Part shown: one piece after another, positions 39,110-58,596 of the stretch
Position numbering within the stretch: the first letter of the stretch is position 1
Layout of the letters: each line of letters begins with the position of its first letter
Assembly: GCA_043817155.1 (NCBI GenBank)
Contig: JBDRHE010000087.1
Coordinates: 983 to 64,982, forward strand
DNA: 64,000 bases
From: Candidatus Omnitrophota bacterium
Lineage (GTDB): Bacteria > Omnitrophota > Gorgyraeia > JABMRN01 > RBG-13-46-9
Reading direction: 5' to 3'
Translations under genes and position numbers: made by a program
Notes under the pieces: generated by a model
What the model saw: the letters and a program-made list of their open reading frames with translations, nothing else
Database searches by the model: none
Told to the model about the DNA's origin: nothing

Positions 39110-39658
39110 ATGGTTGAACTATACATATTATTAATTCTGATGATCATGGGCGCGATAATCGCCGTTGAGGTTAAGGACATGCTCTCTTCGGTTGTAGCGG
39201 TAGGAGCGGTGGGCCTCATTCTCTCAATAGCCTTTTTGATACTAAAAGCACCCGATGTTGCTATTACCCAGCTCGTTGTTGAGATATTGGCCCTCATTAT
39301 CTTAATCAGGGCAACACTTAAGAAGGATCTGCCTTTTTCAACATCCGGAAGATGGGTACTAAATACCGTAATTACTTTTGCGTTCATAGGCGTGCTGCTA
39401 CTTGTCGCGCGCAAATGTTTCGCTGACTTGCCGGAATTTGGCTATCCTATAATGAGAGTGGCGGATACCTATATAAAGGACGGGCTCTTGAAGACAGGCG
39501 CAACCAACGTTGTGTCATCCGTTATACTGGATTTCAGGGCTTTCGATACACTTGGTGAGGCGACGGTCCTGTTTACAGCAGTTATAGGTGTATTGGCTAT
39601 TGTCAGGCGTACCGGAAGAAAGACGGAAGGTCAGAAGATAGAGGAAGAGGAAGAATAA
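39110..39658 (+). CDS. MrpA C-terminal / MnhB-domain protein (DUF4040-like)
   Basis: VILDFRAFDTLGE motif typical of the MrpA C-terminal/MnhB domain. Confidence 0.7.
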   Translation: MVELYILLILMIMGAIIAVEVKDMLSSVVAVGAVGLILSIAFLILKAPDVAITQLVVEILALIILIRATLKKDLPFSTSGRWVLNTVITFAFIGVLLLVARKCFADLPEFGYPIMRVADTYIKDGLLKTGATNVVSSVILDFRAFDTLGEATVLFTAVIGVLAIVRRTGRKTEGQKIEEEEE

Positions 39659-39930
39659 TGAGCCCCGTTAGACCTCTATATTTTACATATGTTTTAGAAA
39701 GTGAGAAGACAGGTGAATTCTATACTGGTGCTACATCCGATTTAAAGAAAAGAATAGTGAAACATAATAAAGGTTTGGTTGCTTCTACAAAATGTAGAGT
39801 TCCATTATATTTAGTATATTTTGAAGCATGCTTTAACAAAGAAGATGCTTTTCGCAGAGAAAAATATCTGAAATCTGGAATGGGTAAACGATATATCAAA
39901 AATCGATTAAGAGGAGATCTAACGGGGTGA
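39658..39930 (+). CDS. GIY-YIG nuclease-superfamily protein (YhbQ/UPF0213-like) inserted inside the mrp module
   Basis: LYFTYVLESEKTGEFYTGATSDLKKRIVKH matches the GIY-YIG core; markedly AT-rich; 1-nt and 4-nt overlaps with flanking genes. Confidence 0.7.
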   Translation: MSPVRPLYFTYVLESEKTGEFYTGATSDLKKRIVKHNKGLVASTKCRVPLYLVYFEACFNKEDAFRREKYLKSGMGKRYIKNRLRGDLTG

Positions 39931-40379
39931 GCAGAGAACACGAAAAGGGAATGTCTCTTATCGTTAAGACCGTTACGAGGCTTACAGTGGGTCTCATTAT
40001 ATTGTATGGTGTATACATTGTTCTTCACGGCCACGTTTCACCGGGTGGGGGTTTTGCAGGCGGCGTCATAATAGCCCTCTCCATTGTTCATCTTATGCTT
40101 GCTTATGGCAAAGACGTTGCTCTGGCGAAGCTTTCACGGGGCGCTGCACACTTCTTTGAGAGCACAGGTGCGCTCCTTTTCCTGGTTATAGCGATACTCG
40201 GATTCACCGGCGGGTACTTCTTTCTCAATTTTATATCTAAGGGAGAGCCCTTCCACCTCTTTAGCGCCGGCATAATTCCTCTTTGCAATATAGCCATAAG
40301 CATGAAGGTTGGAGCCGGGCTCTTTGCGATCTTCATTGCGCTCGTTCTCTTAGATCTGGAATCCGGGAGAAAGTCATGA
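39927..40379 (+). CDS. mrpB: Mrp antiporter subunit B
   Basis: HGHVSPGGGFAGGVI motif. Confidence 0.8.
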   Translation: MSREHEKGMSLIVKTVTRLTVGLIILYGVYIVLHGHVSPGGGFAGGVIIALSIVHLMLAYGKDVALAKLSRGAAHFFESTGALLFLVIAILGFTGGYFFLNFISKGEPFHLFSAGIIPLCNIAISMKVGAGLFAIFIALVLLDLESGRKS

Positions 40380-42715: not shown

Positions 42716-42772
42716 AAAAATAGGTGAGATGAACCCCGTTAGAACTCTATCGGGGTGAAGAAAGTTGCGAAG

Positions 42773-43177
42773 ATGAATAATTCTAATGGGCTTGGCAAAA
42801 CCGACGGGGTGAAGGTTGTTAAGTGGCTGGTAGGGGCGGTCGTTTTAACGGGCATAGCAACTCTCATCGTATTGCGTCCCTTCCCATGCCTTATCTGTCC
42901 CGGTTTTGCGTATTCGGGATTCTTCAGCCGCGCACTCTATATAGTCATCTTAGCATCTGCGCTATGTCTCTACCGCGTGTGGAAAGGACCGACCGGAGCC
43001 GACAGGATAGTGGCTGTAGACATACTTGGAATCATGATAATAGGATTGTGCGCGGTACTTACGGTTTGTACGGGCAGGTCCTGGTATATCGATATCGGAA
43101 TTGCGTGGGCCCTGCAAAGCTTTATAAGCACGTTAGCGCTTTCCAAATATCTAGAAGGCAGAGGATTTGATGAATGA
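42773..43177 (+). CDS. mrpF: Mrp antiporter subunit F
   Basis: MnhF-like TM helices; start uncertain (GTG at 42755 or ATG at 42773). Confidence 0.65.
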   Translation: MNNSNGLGKTDGVKVVKWLVGAVVLTGIATLIVLRPFPCLICPGFAYSGFFSRALYIVILASALCLYRVWKGPTGADRIVAVDILGIMIIGLCAVLTVCTGRSWYIDIGIAWALQSFISTLALSKYLEGRGFDE

Positions 43178-53946: not shown

Positions 53947-56900
53947 ATGATTTCGATAATAATGCACAAGATGAACCGTTCAGCCGTTAAAAAGATGATA
54001 GTTTGTATGGCAATTATGCTAATTTGCGTTCCGCGTATATTGGATGCACAGAATATGGGGGGGAAAGAGGGGAGTGTCCTATATGTGAGCGATGCAGGGG
54101 ATTTTGTTTTTATCGATTTAAGCCAGATCGATGTCAAGCAAGGTGATTTTGTGGAAATTTACAGGGGTTCGAAACAGATCGCTTCCGGATCAATTAAGGC
54201 GCCGATGGAAAAGATGTCCGAAGCCACCGTTTTAGAGAAGAATACAGAGGTAATTATTGGCGATCGAATAGTAATAACAGCATCCCCGAAAAGGCTACCC
54301 CCTGCTACTGAAAAGATCGTAATTGAAGAAGATGAACAAGATCTGGTCGAGGTTGAAGAAGAGATAGGACGCTTACCTGCGTCGGGGGAAGTAATCAGGG
54401 AAGATCCGGAGTACGGAGAACTAAATAGAAGATTTGTTTTACTCCAGGATGAAAAAGCGAAGGTATTCGCTGAATTAAACAGGGAGATAGCATCGCTTAA
54501 GAGCAGCAAGAGAAGTCTTGAACAACAGCTCGAGTCCGCAGAGAGGACCGAAGGTTCAGAGGAAAAGGATCTTCTGGTCAAGATAGAGGACTTAGAGCAA
54601 TCGAAAAAAGATATAATGGCGCTCTTAAATAAGAAGATAGTTTCGATACAAGAGGAGAGCGCAAAAACAGAATCCATGTTACGATCGGAGATAGTCGCCC
54701 TTAAAAGGGAGAAGAAGGTCTCAGAAGATGACTTTGGGATCAAAAGCAAATCTTCAAAAAGCGCAATTGTAAAATCTCTTGAAAAAGAACTGAGAGAGCT
54801 TAAGGAGTCTAAGAGAGATGAGATAGCAAAACTGGAAAAGAAGATTGCGCAATTGGAAATGTCAAATAAAGAGAGTGAAGTTAAACTAAACAATCTTCTA
54901 GATGAAAAGAACGTTTCAACAGAAGGAGCAGAAGTTTCTAAACTCCAGAAAGAGCTCCGGGAGCTGAAAAGTGAGAAGAGCCAGACCGAATCGAAGCTAA
55001 AGAACGAAATAGAGTCACTTAAAGATGCCAAAGGTACTTTAAAGAATGAAACGGCGGAGCTTGAAAAGAGGTTGCTGGATTCAGAGAGGTCAAGGGAAGA
55101 GGCCATAACAGGATTGCAGAAATCTCTGGATAGCAGCAATGCTTCAAAAGATAGTGAAGTTGCGAAGCTGCATAAAGAGCTCCAGGCTCTGAAAAGTGAG
55201 AAGAGCCAGACCGAATCGAAGCTGAATAACGAAATACAGTCTCTCAAAAATGCCGGAGAGAGCCTGAGGGTAACAATAGCTAATATGGAGAAGTCCGCAG
55301 CAGAGAATGCGGCAAAATTAGAAAATGAGCACCGCACTTTCAAAAAATACTCAGAATATGAAATAGTAAACCTCAAAGATGAATCGAAGAATCTGTCAAG
55401 AGAGAAAGAGAACATGGAATCTCTGCTGAAGGCCAATGACCAGGCGCATAAGAATCAATTAAAGGAGCTGGAAGAGGCCAGAAGAGAGGCCATTGCAGAC
55501 CTGGAAAATAAGATGCTGGATCTGAAGAGCTCGAAAGACGAGGCCATAGCAGGATTGCAGAAATCCCTGGATAGCAGCAATGCTTCAAAAGATAGTGAAG
55601 TTGCGAAGCTGCATAAAGAGCTCCAGACTCTGATAGGCGAGAGGAGCCAGACCGAATCGAAGCTGAATAACGAAATACAGTCACTTAAAGATGCCAAAGT
55701 TAGTTTAAAGAATGAAACGGCGGAGCGCGAAAAGAGGTTGCTGGATTCAGAGAGGTCAAGGGAAGAGGCCATAGCAGAATTGCAGAAATCCCTGAATAGT
55801 AGCAATGCTTCAAAAGATAGTGAAGTTGCGAAGCTGCATAAAGAGCTCCAGACGCTGGTAGCGGAGAAGAGGGAGACCGAATCGAAGCTGAATAATGAAA
55901 TACAGTCTCTCAAAAATGCCGGAGAGAGCCTGAGGGTAACAATAGCTAATATGGAGAAGTCCGCAGCAGAGAATATTGCAAAGACAAAAGGCGAACACCA
56001 GACTTTTAGGAAATACTCAGAATACGAAATAGCAAATCTTAAGAATGACCTGGAAAATCTGTCAAGCGAGAAAGAGAATACGGAAGCTATGCTGAAGGCC
56101 AATGCCGAGACTCTTAAAAATCAACTAAACGCGCTGGAAGAGGCCAGAAGAGAGGCCATTGCGGATCTGGAAAATAAGACGCTGGATCTGAAGAGCTCGA
56201 AAGACGAGGCCATAGCGAGTCTTCAAAAAGCCCTTGATAGCAGCAATGCTTCAAAACAACTTGAGACGGCTAAGTTGCAGGATGAGCTCCAGGTCTTGAG
56301 GGCAGAGAAGAACGAGAGCGAATCTAAGCTGAATAGCAAGATACAGGTTCTTGTCAACATCGAAAGCAACCTGAAGGCCAGGATCGCCGATATGGAAAGA
56401 TCCGAAGTCGAGAAGATAGAAGAATTAAGAAAGGAATATGGCACTTTTAAGAAGATCGCGGAAGATGGGGTATCAAAGCTTAAAGGTAGTATTGAGGATC
56501 TGTCCAGGGATAAGATGAGCATGGAATCTACATTGAGGGGGGAAATTGAAGCTCTTAATAAACAACTGGACGAGCTGGAAGAGGCCAAAAGAGAGGCGAT
56601 AGCGGATCTGGGAGAGAAGATGCTGGATCTAAAAAAATCGAATGAATATACAACGGCCAGATTACAGGATGTCGTAGATAACAGAGATGTTAAAATAGAG
56701 GCAGAGGTTTCGAAAGTAGAGGATAAGTTCCAGGCTTTAAGGATGGAGAAGAGAGAGAGTGAGTCTAAGCTAAAGAACGAGATACAGGCCCTTGCCAATA
56801 TCGAAAGCAATCTTAAGGACAAAATAGCTGATATGGAGAGATCCAACGAGGAGATTATAGCGAAATTTAAAAGTGAACGATTCGCTTTAGAAAAGACCGC

Positions 56901-58596
56901 GGAGAGCAAGATAGCAATGCTTGAAGCTGAATTACAGGCTCTATCCATAGAGAAGGAGAATGCGGGATCAACATTGAATGCCCAGCTCGAGTCAATACAG
57001 ACGGCCCACAGGGCATTGCAGGCGTCCAAGGTATCTCTCGATAACGAAATGAAGGCTTTAAAAGAGTCCCATGCTAACACCGTATCCTATTTGGAGGATA
57101 GGCTAAAGGCTCTTAACGAGTCTAAAGACGAAAAGATAGTGAAGTTAGAAGCCAAGTTGGTAGAGGCCGAAGAAGATAAGATGGCTGCTATCACAAAACA
57201 AAAGAATGAATTTATCGCTCTTGACAAATTTAAAGATGAGGCGCGCATAAAACTTGATAACGAATTCCAGGAGTTGCGCGATCAAAAGAAGAATTCAGAG
57301 TTCAAATTAAACGCCGAAATAATTGCATTGAGAGAGACCGAGCAGGCATTGCGCACTGAGCTGGCAAATATTAACGAATCCAGTGAAGAGACCATTTCAA
57401 AATTGAAGGATGAACTTGGGAAGGTAAACAATGAGTACGCCAAGACCGAATCGGCGCTGGGGGATAGGGTTAAGGCCCTGGAAGAGGAGAATGATGGGCT
57501 GAAAGCCGAGTCTGCTTCGCTTAAGAAATCTAAAGAGGAGACTGTATCGATGCTTGAGGGCGAATTGCTTTCAAGGGACAAGGTCATAAATGTACTAAAG
57601 GGCGGCCTGGCTTCCCTGGAGAGCAGGCATGCCAAGAAAGAGTCGGTTCTACTTAGAGAAGTCGAATCGCTTAAAGCAAGACAGAAGGTTACGGAGGCGA
57701 AGAGCGCTACTTTTGAGGAGGCGGCAAATAACGCTCAAGAGACTCTTCATACTCAGCTTGTCATACTTTCCGAAGGAAGAGAAGATGAATCTATCGAACA
57801 GCTTAAGACCGACCTTAAGTACCTGGGTGTTGGCAAGAAGGAGATAGAAGCGAAGATGAGCGTTGAAATCGCCGCCCTGAGAAAGGCGGAGGTTGTTCTC
57901 AGCAACAGACTCGCTGAACTGGAGAAGTCTAAGGCCGAGGAAGTAATGCTATTGCAAAACAAGCTTTATGAGCTTGAAAAGTCCAAAGAGGAGACTATAG
58001 CAGAACTGAAGAATCGACTTGGTAACATGGATAGAGTTAGTTCAACGGCAGAGACGACATTAGCAGATCAGACAGCTTATCTGGAAGAGACTGAAGCGAA
58101 GCTGAGAAGAGAAGTCGCCGACATCAAGAGATCCCATGACCAGACAGTTGCCGAGTTAAACTCGGAGCTCATCGCGTTACGTGACGAAAAGAGAAGGAAG
58201 GGAACCGATTTGAATAAAGAGATGACTCTGCAAATAGAGAAGGAGAGGCTCCTGAAGACGAGATTAGCAGACGCTGAAGAGGTGAAAAGGTCTCAAGAAA
58301 CCAGACTGACCGCTATGGTATCCAAGATCGCCGACCTGAACAAGGAGAAGGATCTCATTGAAACCGCGCTAAAGGATCAGCTCGCGGTGCTTAAAGCAGA
58401 AAACGCTGAAATAAAGAAGGTGCTGGCAAGCGGATTAAAGGGGTTAAAGAGCGAAATCGAAGCTGCGCAAGAAGAAAATAATAGAATAACAAAGTTGCTT
58501 GCTGTGCTTAAAGAGGATTTAAGGAAATCTAATGAGGAGAAGATGATGCTGAAGAGCATAGTCGATGAGTCTATTGGCAAGCCTGATGGGATATAG
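53947..58596 (+). CDS. Giant coiled-coil protein (1549 aa) with signal peptide or anchor and a conserved ~70-aa N-terminal beta-rich domain
   Basis: N-terminal hydrophobic segment then GKEGSVLYVSDAGDFVFIDLSQIDVKQGDFVEIYRG...IGDRIVI, followed by ~1400 aa K/E-rich heptad repeats with near-identical internal tandem repeats. Confidence 0.8.
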   Translation: MISIIMHKMNRSAVKKMIVCMAIMLICVPRILDAQNMGGKEGSVLYVSDAGDFVFIDLSQIDVKQGDFVEIYRGSKQIASGSIKAPMEKMSEATVLEKNTEVIIGDRIVITASPKRLPPATEKIVIEEDEQDLVEVEEEIGRLPASGEVIREDPEYGELNRRFVLLQDEKAKVFAELNREIASLKSSKRSLEQQLESAERTEGSEEKDLLVKIEDLEQSKKDIMALLNKKIVSIQEESAKTESMLRSEIVALKREKKVSEDDFGIKSKSSKSAIVKSLEKELRELKESKRDEIAKLEKKIAQLEMSNKESEVKLNNLLDEKNVSTEGAEVSKLQKELRELKSEKSQTESKLKNEIESLKDAKGTLKNETAELEKRLLDSERSREEAITGLQKSLDSSNASKDSEVAKLHKELQALKSEKSQTESKLNNEIQSLKNAGESLRVTIANMEKSAAENAAKLENEHRTFKKYSEYEIVNLKDESKNLSREKENMESLLKANDQAHKNQLKELEEARREAIADLENKMLDLKSSKDEAIAGLQKSLDSSNASKDSEVAKLHKELQTLIGERSQTESKLNNEIQSLKDAKVSLKNETAEREKRLLDSERSREEAIAELQKSLNSSNASKDSEVAKLHKELQTLVAEKRETESKLNNEIQSLKNAGESLRVTIANMEKSAAENIAKTKGEHQTFRKYSEYEIANLKNDLENLSSEKENTEAMLKANAETLKNQLNALEEARREAIADLENKTLDLKSSKDEAIASLQKALDSSNASKQLETAKLQDELQVLRAEKNESESKLNSKIQVLVNIESNLKARIADMERSEVEKIEELRKEYGTFKKIAEDGVSKLKGSIEDLSRDKMSMESTLRGEIEALNKQLDELEEAKREAIADLGEKMLDLKKSNEYTTARLQDVVDNRDVKIEAEVSKVEDKFQALRMEKRESESKLKNEIQALANIESNLKDKIADMERSNEEIIAKFKSERFALEKTAESKIAMLEAELQALSIEKENAGSTLNAQLESIQTAHRALQASKVSLDNEMKALKESHANTVSYLEDRLKALNESKDEKIVKLEAKLVEAEEDKMAAITKQKNEFIALDKFKDEARIKLDNEFQELRDQKKNSEFKLNAEIIALRETEQALRTELANINESSEETISKLKDELGKVNNEYAKTESALGDRVKALEEENDGLKAESASLKKSKEETVSMLEGELLSRDKVINVLKGGLASLESRHAKKESVLLREVESLKARQKVTEAKSATFEEAANNAQETLHTQLVILSEGREDESIEQLKTDLKYLGVGKKEIEAKMSVEIAALRKAEVVLSNRLAELEKSKAEEVMLLQNKLYELEKSKEETIAELKNRLGNMDRVSSTAETTLADQTAYLEETEAKLRREVADIKRSHDQTVAELNSELIALRDEKRRKGTDLNKEMTLQIEKERLLKTRLADAEEVKRSQETRLTAMVSKIADLNKEKDLIETALKDQLAVLKAENAEIKKVLASGLKGLKSEIEAAQEENNRITKLLAVLKEDLRKSNEEKMMLKSIVDESIGKPDGI

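Follow-up and report, generated by a model that had tools for sequence, protein, structure and literature searches.

The closest described relatives of the element presented here are the Ssn enzymes (cd10448), 94-aa single-domain GIY-YIG enzymes that bind the NTS/SRM hairpin of a DNA single strand and cleave next to it (Chenal et al. 2025, PMC11893778). Ssn genes are themselves flanked by NTS/SRM repeats, and the NTS-ssnA-NTS arrangement was likened by these authors to an insertion sequence (PMC11893778). This work is the only close precedent in the literature searched, where no description was found of a prokaryotic GIY-YIG element combining terminal inverted repeats with a target duplication. 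We report here the analysis of a 64,000-nt stretch of DNA from a Candidatus Omnitrophota bacterium (contig JBDRHE010000087.1, hereafter the window), in which an open reading frame (ORF) for a 90-aa GIY-YIG protein lies between the genes mbhDE and mnhB of a group-4-type membrane-bound [NiFe]-hydrogenase/Mrp operon. Comparisons with orthologous operons and with related copies at other loci indicate that positions 39659-39931 are very likely the insertion of a mobile element bounded by terminal inverted repeats, and they lend somewhat more weight than not to the nuclease itself as the driver of its movement. The family of such tiny GIY-YIG mobile elements is large and apparently undescribed.

Other known systems share part of these features. 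Like the IS200/IS605 and REP/RAYT systems, the element is very small, has ends that form DNA secondary structure, chooses its target at the level of a tetranucleotide, gives rise to short palindromic derivatives and is probably handled as single-stranded DNA. Those systems, however, rely on HUH tyrosine transposases that form covalent intermediates, their hairpins are sub-terminal and they do not duplicate their target, whereas here a GIY-YIG hydrolase is the only ORF, the inverted repeats are terminal and many copies display a 4-bp duplication. Terminal inverted repeats, a target duplication that is short and fixed in length, small derivatives lacking a coding sequence, and tandem or nested pile-ups are shared with classical insertion sequences and the miniature transposable elements with inverted repeats called MITEs (e.g. 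Correia elements), from which the element differs by its only protein, a 90-aa GIY-YIG nuclease and not a DDE, serine or tyrosine enzyme, and by an ORF that borrows the start codon of its host. With the GIY-YIG homing endonucleases (T4 Seg, I-TevI family) it has in common the superfamily, a selfish gene placed between host genes and a presence/absence polymorphism; unlike it, these endonucleases carry a C-terminal DNA-binding domain, have neither terminal repeats nor target duplication and move into homologous alleles only. The best sequence and fold matches of the window protein are UPF0213/YhbQ and the nuclease domain of Slx1 which, unlike this family, correspond to single-copy cellular genes without flanking repeats. 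Slx1 is a structure-selective enzyme that cuts branched DNA at the bases of stems and needs a RING domain and its partner Slx4, and the paired repeats of the element would offer a Slx1-like substrate at the base of their stem. To our knowledge, all catalogued bacterial insertion sequences encode DDE, DEDD, HUH, serine or tyrosine enzymes, and a coding element of 265-305 bp does not reach half the length of the smallest of them (IS200, about 0.7 kb).

One genome was scanned for each GTDB species, which yielded 80 orthologous operons, mostly from Omnitrophota. The mbhDE|mnhB junction is empty in 72 of them, consistent with the absence from related operons that the first-pass annotation of the window had proposed to look for: a spacer of 7-36 nt holds a single TGAG and no repeat arm, typically as ...GAAGA TGAG TAA AGAACACGAAAAAGG ATG. 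The operon closest to that of the window (L094, 79.6% amino-acid identity, 12 genes) is empty and reads GAAGAATAA TGAG TAGGGAGCA, that is, the flanks of the window with one TGAG. Two further loci have MbhDE proteins 99% identical and flanks 94.7% and 96.4% identical at the nucleotide level, one of them being empty (L118, ...AATATTAATAA TGAG CCGCGAACACG...) and the other filled (L177, ...AATATTAATAA TGAG, then the core CCCCGTTAGATCC...GGATCTAACGGGG, then TGAG CCGCGAACACG...), and they differ only by the core and one TGAG. The insertion is thus polymorphic, present in one and absent from the other of two almost identical genetic backgrounds, with 4 bp duplicated where it is present. The boundaries of the inserted unit, found by comparing the junctions of the window and of two homologous loci, delimit a core of 265 bp with terminal inverted repeats of 12-14 nt, which would have been inserted at the TGAG just after the mbhDE stop codon, duplicating this TGAG. 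Both arms lie inside the ORF, at its first and last codons, with TGAG directly outside each. The ATG of the ORF combines the last A of the mbhDE TAA with TG from the left TGAG, the right TGAG copy supplies its TGA stop, and the termini of the unit folded as single-stranded DNA pair in both the minimum free energy and the centroid structures (z = -2.5).

The same TGAG holds a full GIY-YIG copy in other genomes (L102, which is L001; L173; L177/L178), and several loci display reduced forms at this position: a coding-free derivative of 133 nt (L096), a derivative of 93 nt which retains a piece of the GIY-YIG gene and stands beside an older solo right end (L116), and a solo right end which now provides the stop codon of mbhDE (L145). 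A different GIY-YIG element (43% identical), with the repeats TCCCGCCCTTCC / GGAAGGGCGGGA, has duplicated the same TGAG in L114, and a miniature form of the L114-type element occupies it in L103. Operons carrying the gene are scattered among empty ones in the MbhDE tree, the L001 operon ranks only 15th in closeness to that of the window, and the window and L001 proteins are not mutual nearest relatives, all of which argues for repeated use of this site, seemingly a hot spot. A single ancestral insertion common to the window and L001 is not favoured on the same grounds (operon rank, protein tree, scattered carriers), and one old insertion followed by many precise losses would likewise be mobility. 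The same gene does occur at the same place in four other assemblies, which the first-pass annotation would have read as a sign of an old, non-mobile accessory; mobility nevertheless stands, given the scattered carriers and the hot spot.

The family extends far beyond this operon. Searched against 1.84 billion representative proteins, a profile of 36 relatives matched 4195 clusters at E<=1e-10, and the named source organisms among the homology matches include Omnitrophota and Patescibacteria. A homology search with the window protein retrieved a 100% identical protein from a Candidatus Omnitrophota metagenome-assembled genome (P0001), whereas looking up its exact sequence gave no record. Related copies are found at many unrelated loci across genomes, relatives 73% identical lying in unrelated contexts. 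Over all the loci compared, a perfect inverted repeat of 9 nt or more, usually 12-17 nt long, encloses 89 of 98 GIY-YIG copies, and the length of the unit ranges from 265 to 305 nt. Among 54 distinct arm pairs, positions 1-12 of the arms are Watson-Crick paired in approximately 100% of cases, with one G-U pair only. Compensated double changes occur at 12 of 16 arm positions, and compensated cells number 133 as against 48±6 in shuffles, none of 500 shuffles reaching this value. Such covariation looks like the pattern of DNA-level repeats, and not of an RNA helix. A group I intron or another known RNA was ruled out, Rfam giving no match at E<=1 in 39300-40300 and the unit being only 265 nt long. 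These data bear on whether the ORF could be an accessory gene that the hydrogenase/Mrp operon acquired long ago and has passed on vertically, or the paired ends an RNA structure tuning the translation of the operon, both of which would fit with the tight packing and with the presence at the same place in five assemblies. Absence from 72 of the 80 orthologous operons, the scattering of carriers in the host tree, the 73%-identical relatives in unrelated contexts, the near absence of G-U pairs, the lack of an Rfam match and the extreme GC content at third codon positions (GC3) of the ORF all stand against this explanation, which we regard as extremely improbable; it is already contradicted by the synteny data.

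Identical 4-mers flank 32 of 86 distinct CCCGTTAGA-type units, compared with 8.4±2.3 after shuffling (maximum 19 in 2000). Twelve different 4-mers are duplicated (TGAA, TGAG, TGCG, TGAT, TGTG, TTTG, TTTA, TTAA, TTCA, CAGA, TCCA and CTCG), the base before the duplicated 4-mer is A in 23 of the 32 units, and one repeat lineage is found at two targets (TGAT/TGAT in L028, TGAG/TGAG in L067). Tandem or nested ends were observed in L018, L026, L030 and L116; tandem ends fit with the re-creation of (A/G)|TGAR at the right junction by each insertion. Deletion derivatives reach the size of a hairpin, down to 29 nt in L148, and hairpins containing both arms are present beside the GIY-YIG gene in L034. 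The repeat pair occurs in just 3 of 2.9 million viral contigs, a frequency that leaves a phage origin unsupported; the three are IMG/VR contigs (L170, L171, L172) with a CCCGTTAGA...TCTAACGGG unit.

The first-pass annotation had considered a free-standing homing endonuclease. An enzyme of the phage T4 Seg type would spread only by cutting the empty allele, followed by recombinational repair, and its repeats would be incidental. A GIY-YIG protein sited between genes, the somewhat greater similarity of same-site copies from several Omnitrophota among themselves than with most other copies, and a filled/empty polymorphism at 95% flank identity are all compatible with this reading. Yet a 4-bp duplication at a dozen tetranucleotides and insertion at many non-homologous loci need non-homologous insertion, the miniature derivatives keep both ends intact, the covariation of the repeats amounts to selection on the ends themselves, and the protein is a single domain of 90 aa devoid of a DNA-binding domain. 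Homing is consequently not the best fit to inverted-repeat ends, target duplication and many unrelated loci, and we hold it to be quite unlikely. The other suggestion of the same annotation, a mobile-element insertion that has become translationally coupled, is strongly supported by the empty operons, the L177/L118 pair, the inverted-repeat ends and the deletion derivatives.

Proteins of the family share a conserved N-terminal M-[SN]-P-V-R-P and a conserved C-terminal G-L-T-G, which are by-products of the translation of the repeats; in L114, other repeats are associated with other terminal peptides. Distant GIY-YIG genes (36-39% identical) are bracketed by unrelated repeats of 16-17 nt and, since entirely different repeats accompany these distant genes, repeat and ORF co-evolve. 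This bears on another explanation of the unit, in which it would be mobile with the GIY-YIG ORF as a passenger, an unrelated transposase encoded elsewhere moving it in trans in a MITE-like manner. Coding-free derivatives with the same ends must indeed move in trans, we know of no GIY-YIG enzyme acting as a transposase, and no prokaryotic GIY-YIG transposon was found described in the literature searched. Against a passenger, each GIY-YIG lineage examined has its own matching repeat pair, which changes along with the protein, the repeats are inside an ORF under purifying selection, no transposase gene was called among the neighbours at the loci with gene tables, and the homologous Ssn nucleases recognise repeats flanking their own genes (PMC11893778). 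A passenger ORF is on balance unlikely.

The window ORF matches Pfam PF01541 with 51.5 bits (cut-off 22.6, E=1.2e-13) over residues 8-74 and retains 15 of 15 invariant positions of the family alignment; Y11, Y22, G24, R32, H36 and E68, invariant across the 36 relatives, are all present. A single GIY-YIG domain fills the 90 aa, and a separate DNA-binding domain is absent from both the Pfam matches and the structural model. In NCBIfam the only match, below threshold, was to the group I intron endonuclease model TIGR01453 (16 bits for a cut-off of 56). The AlphaFold2 model (pLDDT 88.7) has the order strand-strand-helix-strand-helix-helix and is nearest, in a fold search, to UPF0213 (Foldseek 1zg2) and the nuclease domain of Slx1 (TM 0.63-0.65). 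A sequence search of the PDB gave the UPF0213 protein BH0048 as the top match (E=1.5e-11); no Ssn structure was found there by the sequence and fold searches, UPF0213 and Slx1 being best. The protein is a single-domain GIY-YIG nuclease of the Slx1/UPF0213/Ssn type. The ratio of nonsynonymous to synonymous substitution rates (dN/dS) between the window ORF and homologous copies is 0.11-0.16, so that the ORF is maintained by purifying selection.

Membership of Ssn was defined by BLASTP against N. meningitidis SsnA at E<1e-10 with at least 75% query cover (PMC11893778). The comparator used here was its NTS-flanked orthologue from Neisseria gonorrhoeae, a 94-aa ORF taken from a PLSDB record. Two such records, NZ_CP119140.1 (L179) and NZ_CP119142.1, are listed there as plasmids and are actually chromosomes of 2.17 Mb; in the one that provided the gonococcal ssnA, the NTS copies closest to this gene are turned towards it, in inverted orientation. 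The 3.2 kb surrounding this gene contain 26 matches, on both strands, to the dRS3/NTS core palindrome. The window protein shares 38% identity with gonococcal SsnA over residues 5-68 of 94 (68% cover), with an hhalign probability of 97% and E-values of 5e-13 in the pairwise comparison and 4e-4 in a database search, which places it outside the BLAST definition of the group. By-eye comparison indicates that the window repeat does not fit the published SRM consensus. The two families have in common a single GIY-YIG domain of approximately 90-94 aa, a gene bracketed by inverted copies of a specific repeat, and solo copies the size of a hairpin, found in this family in L034 and L148. They differ in that each end here carries one arm, inside the ORF, instead of a complete hairpin, complete hairpins flanking the gene in few relatives only (L034). 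The C-terminal third reads KSGMGKRYIKNRL... here and KKWNRAWKLQLIE... in SsnA, no large array of solo repeats was seen here in the 64-kb window, and the 4-bp duplication, the empty and filled alleles and the deletion derivatives are documented here and not for Ssn. The window protein would therefore probably represent a sister group of Ssn and not a member, working in a similar manner.

This relationship raises the question of a domesticated Ssn-like host nuclease which, together with its recognition repeats, would have taken a cellular role, in the control of incoming single-stranded DNA or in recombination, and would no longer be mobile. The homology of the core with SsnA fits with such a role, as do the hairpin targets that flank SsnA and its modulation of transformation (PMC11893778) and the purifying selection acting on the ORF. 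Domestication nevertheless agrees poorly with the patchy presence of the gene among close relatives, including the 95%-identical pair, with the decayed copies and solo ends at the same spot, and with a 64-kb window that contains one repeat remnant elsewhere and no target array as in Neisseria. We consider it improbable.

The position of the ends relative to host genes was analyzed on the 27 full-length copies whose left flanking 4-mer starts with TG, as in the window. The element ORF starts at the junction ATG or GTG in 20 of these copies, and in 18 a long host ORF with a normal N-terminus restarts at the ATG or GTG of the right junction; among the products of the restarted genes are response regulators (MKILIVDD...), nucleotidyltransferases (MKVIILAGGKGTRL), DnaN (MKLTVTQENL) and a protein starting with MREVIEAIKKG, where TGCG is duplicated. 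A host Shine-Dalgarno sequence lies upstream of the left junction. Most copies carry AAAGGAGGT just inside the right arm, 7-8 nt ahead of the re-formed start, and this motif, found just upstream of the right repeat in most relatives, is weakened to AGAGGAGAT in the window. The element thus has no start or stop codon of its own, and seems to take the initiation signals of its host and to return a replacement start to the host gene; copies of the window type are usually located on such a host start codon. Its ORF would be translated from whichever ribosome-binding context receives the insertion, and the TG of the target, together with the final base of the right-hand repeat, re-forms GTG or ATG, mostly downstream of the element-borne AAAGGAGG. 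When landing on a start codon followed by AA or AG (ATGAA/ATGAG, the commonest target), it would leave the host gene with a start signal, and the insertion would therefore be nearly harmless inside operons. The target in the window is an ATGAG formed by the TAA stop and TGAG, and not a start codon, preceded by purine-rich Glu codons of mbhDE; the insertion should also be nearly neutral there, because mnhB retains its own ribosome-binding site.

A mechanism can be proposed in which the nuclease would recognise the stem formed by the two repeats paired in single-stranded DNA, as Ssn does with hairpins, and would nick at its base. Host repair or ligation would then complete excision and insertion, and precise loss could occur by slippage between the two target copies that the stem brings together. 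That the nuclease is the mobility enzyme is inferred from the co-evolution of repeat and protein and from the biochemistry of Ssn (PMC11893778). Several points weigh against a mobile element moved by its own nuclease. All the evidence is comparative: mobility itself is known from the comparison of sequences, and so are the discrete ends, the duplicated 4 bp, the filled and empty alleles, the repeated independent hits, the deletion derivatives, the co-variation of the repeats and the purifying selection acting on the ORF. The mbh-site copies of other genomes (P0002, P0004, P0007) are 72-77% identical to one another, which is somewhat closer than to most other copies, and some same-site copies may have been inherited or spread by recombination between homologous flanks and not by fresh transposition. 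A large second group of relatives, with units of the form TTTA[core]TGAA (12 units) or its reverse complement and CTTG[core]TGAA (5 units), lacks a simple 4-bp duplication; for the TTTA[core]TGAA units, host reading frames suggest that the inserted DNA is the core plus TGAA, which hints at an IS200/IS605-like logic (a target tetranucleotide plus an end of its own) or at homing among paralogous host genes. The GC content of the element tracks that of the host, suggesting a long residence in the host lineage, and copies were counted in the 64-kb window alone, which holds one full copy and one remnant. Furthermore, GIY-YIG enzymes are DNA hydrolases for which we know of no strand transfer activity, and joining would need host factors.

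The remnant was located at 42735 by a repeat motif search of the window, in which tblastn and blastn retrieved no second ORF copy. It lies in the mrpE-mrpF spacer, 94 nt long in the window, whereas in over 45 of the 66 relatives compared it is no longer than 20 nt (most often 9-13) and is followed by ATGAA(A/G). The present start of mrpF is probably the GTG at 42809, made of the last G of the repeat and the duplicated TG, from which the protein reads MKVVKWLVGAV, the L001 counterpart being MKNIRWLIGAV. A remnant of an L114-type element is found at the same mrpF start codon in L164. In L119, L135, L146 and L161 the mrpE-mrpF spacer contains other, unrelated GC-rich palindromic or hairpin inserts (e.g. 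CATCCCGGATGAGCCCGAAGGGCTCAATCCGGGATC), and the operon junctions of Omnitrophota seem to collect small repeats.

Table 1. Coordinates, in the window, of the inserted unit, the decayed copy and the adjoining host genes.
Feature	Position	Strand	Basis or remark
GIY-YIG nuclease ORF	39658..39930	+	90 aa; Pfam GIY-YIG, conserved positions, fold model, dN/dS
Left target copy TGAG	39659..39662	+	Empty sites have a single TGAG
Left terminal inverted repeat CCCCGTTAGACCTC	39663..39676	+	14 nt; encodes P-V-R-P
Right terminal inverted repeat GAGATCTAACGGGG	39914..39927	+	13/14 complementary to the left arm; encodes D-L-T-G
Right target copy TGAG	39928..39931	+	Forms GTG with the last G of the repeat; empty sites have one TGAG
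Second copy of this element type, decayed, on the start codon of mrpF	42730..42813	+	TGAA + CCCCGTTAGAAC ... CCGACGGGG + TGAA; no ORF left
Host mbhD/E fusion (equivalent of the MrpA C-terminal domain)	39110..39658	+	Pfam/NCBIfam matches; insertion directly after its TAA stop
Host mnhB/mrpB from its probable true start	39951..40379	+	ATG with AAAAGGGA before it; starts of relatives

In the host operon, the ORF is preceded by NuoH-, NuoB-, NuoC- and large-subunit-like genes, a NuoL-like gene of 553 aa and the fused MbhD/E gene, and followed by genes for MnhB, a NuoK-like protein, MrpD, MrpE, MrpF, MrpG, a ferredoxin, HycI and Hyp proteins. The location of a 90-aa GIY-YIG ORF between the MrpA C-terminal gene and mrpB, as first annotated, agrees with the ORF call and Pfam, and some details of that description needed adjustment. 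The overlap with the upstream gene exists as a single shared base, the stop being TAA (39656-39658), of which only the last A is common with the ATG. The GTGA overlap with mrpB, whose GTG had been read as the start of this gene, is probably only apparent: relatives start mnhB at the ATG equivalent to 39951, with AAAGGN ahead of it, and the 19 nt from 39932 to 39950 are the original intergenic spacer. The compositional anomaly of the ORF is strong, with a GC content of 0.330 compared with 0.455±0.029 for 63 window ORFs (z = -4.3) and a GC3 of 0.198, the lowest of the window, compared with 0.498±0.056 (z = -5.4), but the flanking genes, at 45-49% GC, are not GC-rich as had been stated. Likewise, the split of mrpA into pieces of 553 and 182 aa is real; a link with the insertion was ruled out, as the split occurs in all 70 relatives tested, with or without the GIY-YIG gene. 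The split is ancestral, the insertion lying one gene junction downstream of it. Elsewhere in the window, a 1549-aa ORF (53947-58596) contains internal repeats: the same blastn words recur 225 and 441 nt apart, near 54968/55193 and 55149/55590/55815/56256.

Other observations were made on members of the family. Many database 'proteins' of the family are 110-655 aa long, with a GIY-YIG domain offset from their ends (P0126, P0130, P0143, P0145 and others); the gene caller has probably read on through the junction codons into the adjacent host gene. GIY-YIG elements with an internal ATG occur inside four-helix-bundle genes of the '23S rRNA intervening sequence protein'/Avd-like type (second copy of L023, L031, L049, L050, L052, L082), broken at the S-N-I-A-E-G motif or 2-3 codons after it, and an Avd-like gene is broken at ...FPKNQRF|IFGQRI in L025 and L083. 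In L051, L077 and L085, elements interrupt tyrosine-recombinase genes at conserved motifs, namely HSFA|THLLE, where TTTG is duplicated, and LLGH|KDVTTTQIYTHV. One host gene family (C-terminal ...PKKRIGF/...EEPHV.YKSLKG) is hit repeatedly by CCCCGTTAGAGATCAC-type elements (L035, L062 and L086, and also L061, L063, L065, L076, L084 and L088), which suggests homing among paralogues or a preferred target.

We tentatively propose, with chances a little short of even, that these units could constitute a new class of prokaryotic DNA transposons, in which a sole 90-aa GIY-YIG nuclease would recognise the stem that its own repeats form. No protein-coding transposable element smaller than these units of 265-305 bp would then be known; they would prefer start codons (A|TGAR), take over the host start and hand back a new one, and the REP-/NTS-like hairpins of Ssn would be their fully deleted descendants. 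If the nuclease does drive movement, a further transposase chemistry would be at work in an element not half as large as any insertion sequence known. As the family is large, mobile DNA may lie behind many of the small genes annotated as 'GIY-YIG nuclease family protein', and gene callers may routinely misplace the starts of genes adjoining such elements. Small nucleases recognising a programmable stem could also become tools, as proposed for Ssn, whose hairpin repeats could themselves be minimal deletion derivatives of such elements. For the compact genomes that host them, insertion exactly on a start codon or directly behind a stop codon, with a borrowed ribosome-binding site and start and a regenerated start for the host gene, would represent a new way of being harmless.

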